From: Candidatus Daviesbacteria bacterium
GTDB lineage: Bacteria > Patescibacteriota > Microgenomatia > Daviesbacterales > UBA10151
Assembly (NCBI GenBank): GCA_016184225.1
Contig: JACPDA010000004.1
Coordinates: 134,800-198,799 of the forward strand
Reading direction: 5' to 3'
Length of the DNA stretch: 64,000 nt
In this document: piece after piece, positions 54,356 through 55,999 of the stretch
Layout: every line of letters starts with the position of its first letter
How positions within the stretch are numbered: the stretch's first letter is position 1
Program-made: the position numbers and the translations under genes
Notes under the pieces: generated by a model
The model's input: only the letters and a program-made list of their open reading frames with translations
Databases searched by the model: none
Told to the model about the DNA's origin: nothing

Positions 54356-55999
54356 TTGTCAAGTCTTTACAAAATTTTTAATAGTGCTATCATCATAGTC
54401 CGTATGAATAAACTTTTAGATTTTTGGGCTCCTTGGTGTATTGATCCGGAAACTCCGGTTTTAACTGAAAATGGTTATATAAAAGCTTTACAAGTTAAGA
54501 TAGGGCAAAGATTAATCGCAATTGACCCAAAGACTAAAAAGCAATCAATTAAGAAAGTCCAAAAGGTGAGAATTTTTAAAGATGCTTCTTCCAAAAAAAT
54601 AATTTTAGAAACAGGTAGGGAATTGGTTGGAGATGTTAATCACCTAGTCTTAACACAAGAAGGTTTTAAAAAACTAGAAGAGCTAACAGTGGGAGCAAAG
54701 ATTTTAGTTGATCCTGTAGTTAAAGTAGACCAATTTAATGAATCAATTGCTCTTGCAAGGTTATTAGGTTTTGTTGTGACAGATGGGTATCTATATGAGG
54801 ATTTAAAACACCATATTCACGAAACCCATTTTTTTGTGGGAACAGAACAAGATGCAAAAGATATCAAAAACGATCTGGAATGCTTAGGTTTCCATAAACT
54901 TGAAATTAAAATAAGATCCAATAAAAGAGTCATTGACGGCAGAGAATTCATAATTAATACTTACCGTTGCCGCAATTTTGAGAAAGCTTTATTTGAATTG
55001 TTGAAGTCCAAAGGAGCTCCTGTCGGTCGCAAGAAGAACCAGGCTTATTTTGTTCCCGAATGGATTATGGATGGGGATGTATCCGTGAAAAGCGCTTTTT
55101 TAAGTGGCTGGTTGGGCGGAGACGGATGCAAGATCGATTATTATATCAAACATGCTGGCGCCAGCTCTCATAATGCAGGCTTCAAGGTTAATGCTATTGA
55201 ATTTCATAAAGAGAAAGAGTTTGAAAGAGAGGGAATTCTTTACGCGAAACAACTGGGATTATTACTTGAACAATTGGGAGTTGAAGTAAGGGATATATCA
55301 AGCAGTGATGATGAAGACGGGGTAATTATTTCACTCAGAGTAGCTACTGACTATCAATCGCTATTTAACTTAGCTAGTATTGGCTACGCTTATGCTAGAT
55401 CAAAGAATGTTAGCATTCCTTTTATCAGGGAGTTTTTACAGTACAGACTTTTTGAACGTAATCGTTATATTCAAGCAAAGCAAATTGCTCTTCAGCAGTT
55501 AGCCTTAGGAGTCAGCAGTAACCAAATTGCTGAGAGTTTGCAAATCCCAGTTGGCACAATAGTTAGCTGGAATTATGCAAATAGAGATACTCAAGTAGTG
55601 TATCCTGCTAAAGGCGGTGAGGCTTTATTTATAAAATGGTTGGAACAGCGTCAACAAGAAAACTTATTATGGGAAAGAGTCTTATCAATTGAAGAAGCAG
55701 ATAATCGTGATGTAATAGGTATTACAGTCGGTGACCCTCATACAATTATAACTAATGGGATGGTCTCTCATAATTGTGGACCCTGTCATGTGATGGCTCC
55801 TGTTTTGGAAGAACTGGAAAAAGAACTCTCAGGCAAGGTTGAAATAGAAAAAATTAATGTTGATGATAATCAAGCCAAAGCCAGCGAGCATGGAGTGATG
55901 AGTATACCAACTTATATTATCTTAAAAGATGGTAAAGAGGTGGCTAGAAAAATTGGGGTAACTGCTAAAGCAGATCTTTTGAAATTGCTTCAAAGTTGA
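54356..55999 (+). CDS. trxA: Thioredoxin interrupted by a LAGLIDADG-type intein
   Basis: Exteins read ...DFWAPW | [14 protein letters not shown]..., i.e. the WCGPC active site is split. Intervening 446 aa starts with Cys and ends with His-Asn, followed by Cys+1. Confidence 0.85.
   Translation: [547 protein letters not shown]
54437..55774 (+). mobile_element. Intein (446 aa) with LAGLIDADG homing endonuclease domain, inserted at the thioredoxin active-site Cys
   Basis: Cys1 [13 protein letters not shown] (block A). LAGLIDADG motifs [14 protein letters not shown] and [11 protein letters not shown]. C-terminal VSHN followed by extein CGPC. Confidence 0.8.

Follow-up and report, generated by a model that had tools for sequence, protein, structure and literature searches.

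A LAGLIDADG intein inserted at the catalytic cysteine of a small thioredoxin from Candidatus Daviesbacteria

In an uncultured groundwater bacterium, Candidatus Daviesbacteria, the small gene encoding thioredoxin is interrupted by an intein exactly at the catalytic cysteine. The insertion point lies between the tryptophan and the first cysteine of the active-site motif WCGPC, and the insert is very probably a functional class-1 intein with a LAGLIDADG homing endonuclease, carried in frame within an 85-aa thioredoxin. It is an ordinary class-1 mobile element; new are its host protein and its site. Positions refer to the window, i.e., the whole 64-kb stretch of DNA that was analyzed, and all features described are located on the plus strand.

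The precursor is encoded by a single, uninterrupted ORF that runs from TTG 54356 or ATG 54404 to the stop codon at 55999, and neither an internal stop nor a frameshift was found in it. Reading along the ORF, FWAPW is followed by an insert that extends from Cys1 to His-Asn and then by Cys+1-GPC, which bears out the split of the active-site motif proposed in the first-pass annotation. The insert comprises the 446 codons given there (54437..55774); it opens with CIDPETPVL and closes with ITNGMVSHN. The same annotation had assumed an extein of 101 aa, which corresponds to a start at TTG 54356. This start was rejected, and the extein most likely consists of 85 aa (11 + 74) beginning at ATG 54404, because homologues begin with M-x-K-LLDFW, because intein-free orthologues are 84 to 87 aa long, and because the best promoter-like site of the region (54366..54393) is situated downstream of the TTG. 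This site, TTTACA-16 nt-TATCAT with a TG before the -10 element, came from a consensus scan and is a consensus match only (10 of 12 positions); as a predicted promoter, it would yield a near-leaderless trx mRNA.

With this start, the precursor CDS (54404..55999) comprises 531 aa and a stop codon, and its product matches HYU45_01280, an NCBI protein of Candidatus Daviesbacteria, with 100% identity. The N-extein (54404..54436), delimited by alignment with intein-free orthologues and by homologue starts, contributes 11 aa that form the strand leading into the thioredoxin active site. The C-extein (55775..55999; 74 aa and stop) starts at Cys+1 of CGPC (55775..55786) and carries the cis-Pro motif SIPT. 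GC contents of 36.3% for the intein, 37.2% for the extein, and 40.5% for the window give no compositional sign of a recent foreign origin.

Removal of the insert restores WCGPC. On the thioredoxin model TIGR01068, for which the NCBI equivalog cutoff is 96.8, the in silico spliced protein of 85 aa reaches 108.2 bits; it contains D6, WCGPC, and SIPT, corresponding to the buried Asp, the active site, and the cis-Pro loop of thioredoxin. In the unspliced precursor, the C-extein is matched by Pfam Thioredoxin with 66.9 bits, and in the AF2 model it superposes on thioredoxins over 73 columns with an rmsd of about 1.5 Å (Foldseek). The N-terminal strand and helix of Escherichia coli TrxA (β1-α1) are missing from the spliced product, as they are from all Daviesbacteria orthologues. 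Within the 64-kb window, no second thioredoxin, no second copy of the intein, no TrxB gene, and no Rfam family were found.

The assignment of the insert as a class-1 intein (Cys1, terminal His-Asn, then Cys+1) is based on profiles, alignment, AF2, and Foldseek. All four Hint-domain blocks whose presence the first-pass annotation had left to be checked (A, B, F, and G) were recovered in searches against profiles and PDB sequences. Block A (54437..54475; 13 residues) begins with Cys1, which is residue C12 of the precursor and is invariant in 20/20 aligned sequences and in every homologue with the N-junction present; TIGR01445 (intein_Nterm) matches weakly here. Block B (54614..54685; 24 residues) was aligned to block B of the Ssp DnaB mini-intein and carries the invariant His80. 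Herein, the Thr of the TxxH motif is replaced by Asp (DVNH) in the clade of the window intein, whereas a distant clade keeps TxxH. Blocks F (18 residues) and G (MVSHN), together spanning 55706..55774 and ending with His456-Asn457, align to those of Ssp DnaB and gp41-1, and H456, N457, and C458 are invariant among the aligned homologues. The Pfam model Intein_splicing is matched with 36.5 bits (cutoff 35.8). NCBIfam RtcB_rel_intein gives 137.8 bits over the intein, which is a partial match to which the cutoff of 1150, being a whole-protein value, does not apply. Taken with the thioredoxin scores, these matches lie well outside what chance would give. In the AF2 model of the precursor (pLDDT 86.2), the Hint fold is matched by the mini-inteins 1mi8, 6qaz, 4o1r, and 2in0 with an rmsd of 1.4 to 1.9 Å over 94 to 98 columns (Foldseek). 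The identification as an intein is, thus, also backed on the structural level, by matches to endonuclease-bearing inteins, LAGLIDADG enzymes, mini-inteins, and thioredoxins.

The LAGLIDADG homing-endonuclease domain comprises precursor residues 106 to 335 (54719..55408), as indicated by AF2, Foldseek, and dN/dS. It is built from two α-β-β-α-β-β-α halves, which start with the helices 113–127 and 226–240, each continued as E/E/H/E/E/H (AF2, pLDDT mostly >90). Its fold matches PI-PfuI, I-DmoI, I-SceI, and E-DreI, with TM values relative to the target of 0.5 to 0.67 for I-DmoI, I-SceI, E-DreI, and I-WcaI (Foldseek). The two LAGLIDADG-like motifs noted at first pass were recovered by alignment in their places. 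Motif 1 (54761..54790), LLGFVVTDG, contains the presumed catalytic Asp127, and L120, G122, D127, and G128 are invariant in 20/20 sequences down to 33% identity; motif 2 (55100..55129), LSGWLGGDG, contains the presumed catalytic Asp240, with G238, G239, D240, and G241 invariant in 20/20 sequences. Pfam LAGLIDADG_3 stays below significance on the isolated endonuclease region (E 0.96); the domain was called from its motifs, its predicted fold, and its homologues. Compared with the 563-aa forms, members of the window-intein clade lack a stretch of 32 residues immediately ahead of LAGLIDADG helix 1, a loss that could impair DNA binding.

Next to the endonuclease, a long helix and a helix-turn-helix are formed by residues 338 to 391 (55415..55576; SNQIAESL / VGTIVSWNY), with helices at 338–367, 372–379, and 383–391 in the AF2 model. 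The isolated region gives weak, subthreshold Pfam matches to GerE and HTH_23 (E 0.04–0.15), and Foldseek also returns WhiA, which combines LAGLIDADG and helix-turn-helix domains. This region is probably an extra DNA-binding module. The LAGLIDADG family is very divergent. One sequence relative of the window intein, the multi-intein protein P0230, matches LAGLIDADG_3 at 92 bits, but outside the segment that aligns to the window intein.

Homologous precursors form 72 clusters in metagenomes, collected from NCBI, JGI, ENA, and Logan assemblies. The first-pass remark that inteins are seldom reported in thioredoxin holds insofar as no publication on a natural thioredoxin intein was found in the literature searched, but the case is not unique, as the 72 clusters demonstrate. 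In the same literature, no publication on inteins of CPR/Patescibacteria was found, and all examined co-occurrences of “intein” and “thioredoxin” concerned engineered fusions. Cys1, His-Asn, and Cys+1 are kept at every junction present among the 72 clusters, and His80, Asp127, and Asp240 are invariant in the 20-sequence alignment, which reaches down to 33% identity and includes bacterial and archaeal copies. Median dN/dS values, which are rough because dS is near saturation, amount to 0.11 for the extein, 0.15 for N-Hint, 0.10 for the endonuclease, 0.16 for the helix-turn-helix, and 0.12 for C-Hint. Among the 72 clusters, neither a mini-intein nor a form lacking the endonuclease turned up, and one relative (L018) appears split into two ORFs. 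Another relative (L009) was suspected to be a pseudogene on account of its NCBI annotation of 310 aa; this suspicion was rejected, and the short annotation is a start-annotation problem, because its ORF is intact at 560 aa. Carriers were found in 14 of 185,579 species genomes, exclusively in Microgenomates bacteria and DPANN archaea, and in a neighbor-joining tree the thioredoxin inteins (n = 17) form a clade of their own with a bootstrap of 75/100.

Empty sites are abundant. Intein-free thioredoxins of 84 to 99 aa (mostly 84–87 aa) make up more than 120 clusters and are 76 to 89% identical to the spliced extein. Two intein-free orthologues share the window synteny G5/3D-UvrD-Trx-DNA_binding_1-TIM-LytR, in which DNA_binding_1 is MGMT-like, so trxA is indeed uninterrupted at the same locus in related genomes, a point raised at first pass. 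The DNA over the insertion point is nearly invariant, reading CTTTTAGATTTTTGGGCTCCYTGG on its upstream side and TGYGGACC on its downstream side. By UvrD identity, the intein-free loci L004 (76.5%) and L001 (74.2%) are nearer to the window than the intein-bearing loci L006 (70.0%), L013 (64.5%), and L012 (52.3%), and for 24 of 60 intein-bearing exteins the nearest neighbor is intein-free. In L004, the intein-free trx allele occupies positions 4001–4258. Intein-bearing and intein-free alleles are, thus, interleaved among relatives. Both occur in sequencing runs with neighboring accessions, the intein-free allele in SRR12113424 and the intein-bearing allele in SRR12113385, -428, and -431.

A 433-bp tract inside the intein (55226..55658) is exactly identical to the intein-bearing locus L005 on the level of DNA; the contig with which it is shared is CAZKCV010000005.1. 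The DNA of L005 flanking this tract is 80 to 87% identical to the window, and a nearby intein segment (54864–55063) is only 58 to 65% identical. Such identity amid divergent flanks suggests a recombination mosaic that arose through recent exchange; it could instead stem from a chimeric metagenome assembly. A scan of IMG/VR viral contigs yielded no relative, so that no phage contig carrying the element, and thus no vector, was found.

From the canonical class-1 pathway, we infer the following course of splicing and homing. After translation of the 531-aa precursor, Cys1 would undergo an N-S acyl shift at Trp(-1), and the resulting thioester would be attacked by Cys+1, which is at the same time the nucleophilic cysteine of thioredoxin. 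Cyclization of Asn457, assisted by His456, and a subsequent S-N shift would then yield intact thioredoxin (...FWAPW-CGPC...) of about 9.5 kDa and the free intein of 51 kDa. The latter would act as a site-specific endonuclease, aided by the helix-turn-helix, with the highly conserved active-site DNA (12 codons) of intein-free trx alleles as its predicted target, where cleavage would be expected to leave a 4-nt 3' overhang near CTCCYTGG|TGYGG. Repair of the cut from an intein-bearing copy would spread the element.

Outside thioredoxin, the closest sequence relatives are RpoB and RtcB-family inteins of archaea and ultrasmall prokaryotes (comparison set: NCBIfam NF038162 RtcB_rel_intein and the RpoB multi-intein proteins P0211–P0214). 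They are 26 to 30% identical to the window intein across endonuclease, helix-turn-helix, and C-Hint (138–190 bits) but differ from it in host protein and insertion site. The best Foldseek matches are PI-PfuI (1dq3), the Tli and Pho VMA inteins (7qss/7qst), and PI-TkoII (2cw7), with E values from 2.5e-14 to 3e-10. These share with the window intein both the layout, namely an N-Hint half, a two-motif LAGLIDADG domain, an extra domain, and a C-Hint half, and the class-1 chemistry of Cys1, His-Asn, and a +1 nucleophile. However, sequence identity is only 13 to 14%, and they interrupt ribonucleotide reductase, V-ATPase, and DNA polymerase as opposed to a redox protein. In addition, the extra domain of PI-PfuI is a stirrup, whereas that of the window intein is a helix-turn-helix. 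Thioredoxin likewise stands as an extein beside an intein in the engineered thioredoxin-intein fusions of many papers; these are artificial and joined end to end, whereas here a natural intein interrupts the active-site motif.

Other readings of the locus concern its integrity and its role. That the precursor does not splice at all, so that trx amounts to a pseudogene or codes for a fusion protein with a different function, or that the locus is a metagenome assembly artefact, is highly improbable. A second thioredoxin was not seen, within 64 kb of the genome, which would fit such a reading, but the extein of intein-bearing alleles is under purifying selection (dN/dS 0.11) and those splice-junction residues that are present do not vary among the 72 clusters. 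The same 531-aa protein was, moreover, assembled independently from three sequencing runs and, therefore, is no assembly artefact, and its homologues come from four assembly sources. An element that still splices with a dead endonuclease, stranded late in the homing cycle and inherited vertically, is unlikely. The 32-aa deletion beside LAGLIDADG helix 1 in the window clade, the nonsignificant Pfam LAGLIDADG match, and the apparently broken relative L018 speak for this possibility; against it stand an endonuclease dN/dS no higher than the extein value, the invariance of Asp127, Asp240, and their neighboring Gly residues in bacterial and archaeal copies, the sporadic distribution, and the 433-bp tract of recent exchange.

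It is rather improbable that the intein has been domesticated as a redox switch, by which splicing, and with it the provision of active thioredoxin, would require reduced thiols, and similarly doubtful that it is kept for gating thioredoxin maturation and not solely as a selfish element. Cys1, Cys+1, and Cys+4 are the only three invariant cysteines of the precursor, and Cys+4 is three residues away from Cys+1, the splicing nucleophile that is also the catalytic Cys of CGPC. A disulfide of Cys+1 with Cys+4 or of Cys1 with Cys+1 is the chemistry tentatively conceived for the switch; with little likelihood, it would stall splicing under oxidizing conditions. Thioredoxin would then be a redox-gated zymogen, and the element would also have moved between Patescibacteria and DPANN archaea, two groups frequently found in the same habitats; this extended version, too, is improbable. 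Within it, the CGPC motif itself could alternatively resolve such disulfide traps. For the MoaA intein of Pyrococcus abyssi, Callahan et al. reportedly described in 2011 a disulfide of the catalytic cysteine and conditional splicing. Native inteins stalled in this manner include DnaBi1 of Mycobacterium smegmatis, by a disulfide of its catalytic cysteine (PMC6195587), and the PolII intein of P. abyssi, by a Cys1-Cys+1 disulfide, as reviewed (PMC5874633). All three can have their catalytic cysteines trapped in disulfides, which makes splicing conditional, but the partner cysteines are incidental, whereas Cys+1 and Cys+4 of the window intein are the CGPC redox center of the host enzyme. Strong purifying selection on the intein and the lack of reduced forms among the 72 clusters are also in line with a retained regulator. 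However, most close relatives get along well without the intein, and this, together with the interleaving of both allele types, is what a selfish homing cycle, and not a fixed regulator, would leave behind; in addition, the catalytic residues of the endonuclease are conserved, a feature for which a pure regulator would have no use. If redox gating were true, the maturation of possibly the only thioredoxin of the cell would be coupled to its thiol redox state.

Known inteins cluster in proteins of replication, repair, and nucleotide metabolism. Thioredoxin is unmentioned in the text of a 2016 survey of prokaryotic inteins (PMC4760082). A well-conserved intein lineage in the CGPC redox center of a very small (85-aa) protein, hence, widens the known host range. 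With a splicing nucleophile that is the catalytic redox cysteine of the host, the thioredoxin intein is a natural test case for the debated environmental (redox) switches of inteins. A new homing endonuclease might also be obtained from it, with the near-invariant DNA across the insertion point as the predicted target. The lineage is confined to two groups with reduced genomes, Microgenomates bacteria and DPANN archaea, and may mark gene flow between them.

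The thioredoxin gene of this Patescibacteria/Microgenomates host is read as a single ORF on the forward strand, which begins at either TTG 54356 or ATG 54404, stops at 55999, and is uninterrupted throughout the fusion. Translation agrees with the first-pass annotation in placing an insert of 446 codons at 54437..55774 (+), which has Cys as its first residue, His-Asn as its last two, and another Cys directly after it; both LAGLIDADG-like motifs that the annotation had quoted are located on the same strand at 54761..54790 and 55100..55129. Its extein of 101 aa, counted from the TTG, is replaced by one of 85 aa counted from ATG 54404. 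This start is preferred because all homologue N termini read M-x-K-LLDFW, intein-free orthologues are 84-87 aa long, and the TTG, which was dropped as a start on these grounds, precedes the top-scoring promoter-like site (TTTACA-16-TATCAT, 54366..54393). The N-extein then comprises 11 aa, and the mature thioredoxin of 85 aa lacks the β1–α1 N-terminal extension of Escherichia coli TrxA, a short form that is the norm in Daviesbacteria. The precursor is 100% identical to NCBI HYU45_01280, a "hypothetical protein" of Candidatus Daviesbacteria bacterium. Neither a second thioredoxin nor a thioredoxin reductase was found in the 64-kb window, and an Rfam scan of it gave no family at gathering score.

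Pfam recognizes two domains on the precursor: Thioredoxin, with 66.9 bits, and Intein_splicing, with 36.5 bits against a cutoff of 35.8. NCBIfam matches comprise an RtcB-family protein intein (137.8 bits), an RFC intein, and the models for the N and C termini of inteins. The Hint blocks, whose presence had been left to a profile search, were also recovered from PDB sequences, among which blocks B and F/G align with the Ssp DnaB and gp41-1 mini-inteins. Against the thioredoxin equivalog TIGR01068 (cutoff 96.8 bits), the 85-aa product spliced in silico scores 108.2 bits and the unspliced precursor, at 91.5 bits, falls below the cutoff. The AlphaFold2 model, for which 20 homologues were used, is confident (pLDDT 86.2, pTM 0.78). 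Herein, two β-rich Hint halves (precursor aa 12-105 and 409-457) enclose two α–β–β–α–β–β–α units (aa 113-202 and 226-326), the first helix of each ending in a LAGLIDADG motif, and a long helix that leads into a helix-turn-helix (aa 338-391; window 55415-55576). The top group of Foldseek matches in the PDB consists of the endonuclease-bearing inteins TliVMA, PI-PfuI, PhoVMA, and PI-TkoII (E 2.5e-14 to 3e-10). The free LAGLIDADG enzymes E-DreI, I-DmoI, and I-SceI were also matched, mini-inteins were matched at an rmsd of 1.4-1.9 Å, and the C-extein superposes on thioredoxins with an rmsd of about 1.5 Å. WhiA (8dy9_I, 3hyi) is among the matches as well, and the placing of the helix-turn-helix after the LAGLIDADG domain is reminiscent of it. 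Since Pfam LAGLIDADG_3 gives no significant match to the isolated endonuclease domain (E 0.96), the domain is assigned from motifs, fold, and homologues; every other in silico check for the features of a class-1 intein and a two-motif LAGLIDADG endonuclease was positive.

A search of 5.8 billion proteins gave 72 precursor clusters (529-603 aa) in which thioredoxin is interrupted by the intein at this same W/C(GPC) position, and none of these clusters represents a mini-intein or an endonuclease-less form. Cys1, His-Asn, and Cys+1 are kept at each junction present among homologous precursors. Among the residues that do not vary in an alignment of 20 sequences, down to 33% identity, are Cys1, His80 of block B, Asp127-Gly128, Gly238-Gly239-Asp240-Gly241, His456, Asn457, Cys458 (Cys+1), and Cys461 (Cys+4). 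Cys1, Cys+1, and Cys+4 are the only invariant cysteines. The clade of the window (529-539 aa) has 32 residues fewer than the 563-aa forms, just before LAGLIDADG helix 1 (junction near 54748/54749), and its block B reads DxxH vs TxxH in the distant clade. Median Nei–Gojobori dN/dS values across ten close loci, which are rough because dS is near saturation, amount to 0.11 for the extein, 0.15 for N-Hint, 0.10 for the endonuclease, 0.16 for the helix-turn-helix region, and 0.12 for C-Hint; dN is far below dS in every region, endonuclease included. At one locus (L018 1925-4552, Microgenomates group bacterium Gr01-1014_16), the gene is split into two ORFs of 236 and 316 aa with a shortened C-extein and is immediately followed by a 324-aa thioredoxin-reductase-like gene. 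The copy may be decaying, or the break may stem from sequencing and assembly errors.

Uninterrupted thioredoxin genes, which the first-pass annotation had proposed to look for in relatives, are common. More than 120 intein-free clusters (84-99 aa, mostly 84-87), many of them named Daviesbacteria, are 76-89% identical to the spliced extein used as the query. Two such alleles lie on large contigs with the gene order of the window: G5/3D protein, UvrD/PcrA, Trx, DNA_binding_1 (MGMT-like), TIM, and LytR. The DNA at the insertion point is nearly invariant (CTTTTAGATTTTTGGGCTCCYTGG/TGYGGACC, the slash marking the insertion), and recognition of a site of this kind by a LAGLIDADG enzyme would be expected. 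The distribution of the intein is sporadic. UvrD identity to the window amounts to 76.5% and 74.2% for the intein-free loci L004 and L001, and to only 70.0%, 64.5%, and 52.3% for the intein-bearing loci L006, L013, and L012. The nearest neighbor is intein-free for 24 of 60 intein-bearing exteins, parsimony gives about 25 changes of intein state on a poorly resolved extein tree, and both kinds of allele occur in sequencing runs with neighboring accession numbers. The intein is also mosaic: window 55226..55658 matches L005 4922-5354 exactly over 433 bp, whereas identity is 80-87% in the flanking DNA, flanking genes included, and only 58-65% in the neighboring intein segment. Recent recombination between intein alleles is the simplest explanation for this tract, the alternative being a chimeric metagenome assembly. 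In L005 (CAZKCV010000005.1), the closest intein-bearing relative, trx and the MGMT-like gene are moreover separated by an insertion of 2.6 kb (5723-8304) that is absent from the window. This insertion contains a 256-aa ORF, a 96-aa helical ORF (minus strand), and a gene for a reverse transcriptase of 335 aa bearing a YADD motif, and looks like a diversity-generating retroelement or retron-like cassette.

Only 14 of 185,579 GTDB species genomes contain the thioredoxin intein, and no viral contig with it was found. One group of carriers comprises Daviesbacteria, Curtissbacteria, and other Microgenomates; the other, at 30-33% identity to the window, comprises records titled Nanoarchaeia, Nanohalobium, and Woesearchaeota (L015, L016, and L017). 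The genomic neighbors agree with these titles, with a deoxyhypusine synthase at L015 and an acidic proteome at L016. In all three DPANN copies the intein occupies the same site in a thioredoxin with a full-length N terminus. Seven intein-bearing loci (L005, L006, L007, L010, L011, L013, and L014) stem from MAGs whose record titles read [quoted passage not shown] or "ERP*"; this organism name looks like a placeholder or mislabel because, at L005-L007, L011, and L013, UvrD, MGMT-like, or TIM genes have 62-90% identity with their counterparts in the Daviesbacteria window. With the intein by itself as the query, 584 relatives were obtained from 1.84 billion cluster representatives, the closest non-thioredoxin hosts (26-30% identity) being RpoB and a methyltransferase. 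The RpoB relatives (P0211-P0214, P0221, P0223, and others) use three conserved insertion sites, before CG[LI]VKN, ETPEG, and MGKQA, and such a protein, at 1,600-2,800 aa, frequently contains several inteins. A neighbor-joining tree was built from 96 sequences over 332 columns of the endonuclease and C-Hint region. It unites the 17 thioredoxin inteins in a single clade (bootstrap 75/100), which takes in CPPC- and CMPC-motif hosts; P0209 (604 aa) and P0225 (593 aa) are such thioredoxin-fold proteins, with the same intein right before the first Cys. This clade points to one founding invasion at the thioredoxin active site and to a later spread among reduced-genome bacteria and archaea.

Taken as a whole, the element is very probably a canonical class-1 intein whose LAGLIDADG/HTH endonuclease homes into empty trx alleles. 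Cys1 would form the thioester, Cys+1, the thioredoxin nucleophile itself, would take over the N-extein, and Asn457 would cyclize with the aid of His456. The predicted products are a mature WCGPC thioredoxin and a free endonuclease, which would cleave and home into empty alleles. Directly observed are the anatomy and its conservation, the empty sites, the mosaicism, and the sporadic distribution, and it is splicing, cleavage, and homing that are inferred. That the intein is stranded and its endonuclease dead is unlikely, given the low dN/dS and the invariance of the catalytic Asp residues. Somewhat more doubtful still is a domesticated redox switch: the three invariant cysteines being the sole ones would suit it, and disulfides can stall native inteins (PMC6195587; PMC5874633), but the interleaving of intein-bearing with intein-free alleles looks selfish. 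That the gene is a non-splicing pseudogene or an artefact is highly improbable; the same precursor was assembled independently in three sequencing runs and is therefore no assembly artefact.

The thioredoxin intein is a genuine, well-supported finding. This kind of element is well known, and what is new is the host protein and the insertion site. Inteins had been described at the outset as seldom reported in thioredoxin, in line with the open-access full texts searched, which contain engineered thioredoxin–intein fusions and no natural one, and with the main survey of prokaryotic inteins, in which thioredoxin is not mentioned (PMC4760082). These full texts likewise yielded no paper on inteins of CPR/Patescibacteria. 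Because databases already label some homologues automatically (JGI "intein/homing endonuclease"; a precomputed Pfam pair of Thioredoxin and Intein_splicing), the sequences are public but apparently undescribed. Two aspects give the system its interest: it provides a natural setting in which to test redox-conditional splicing, and it occurs across both Patescibacteria and DPANN archaea.
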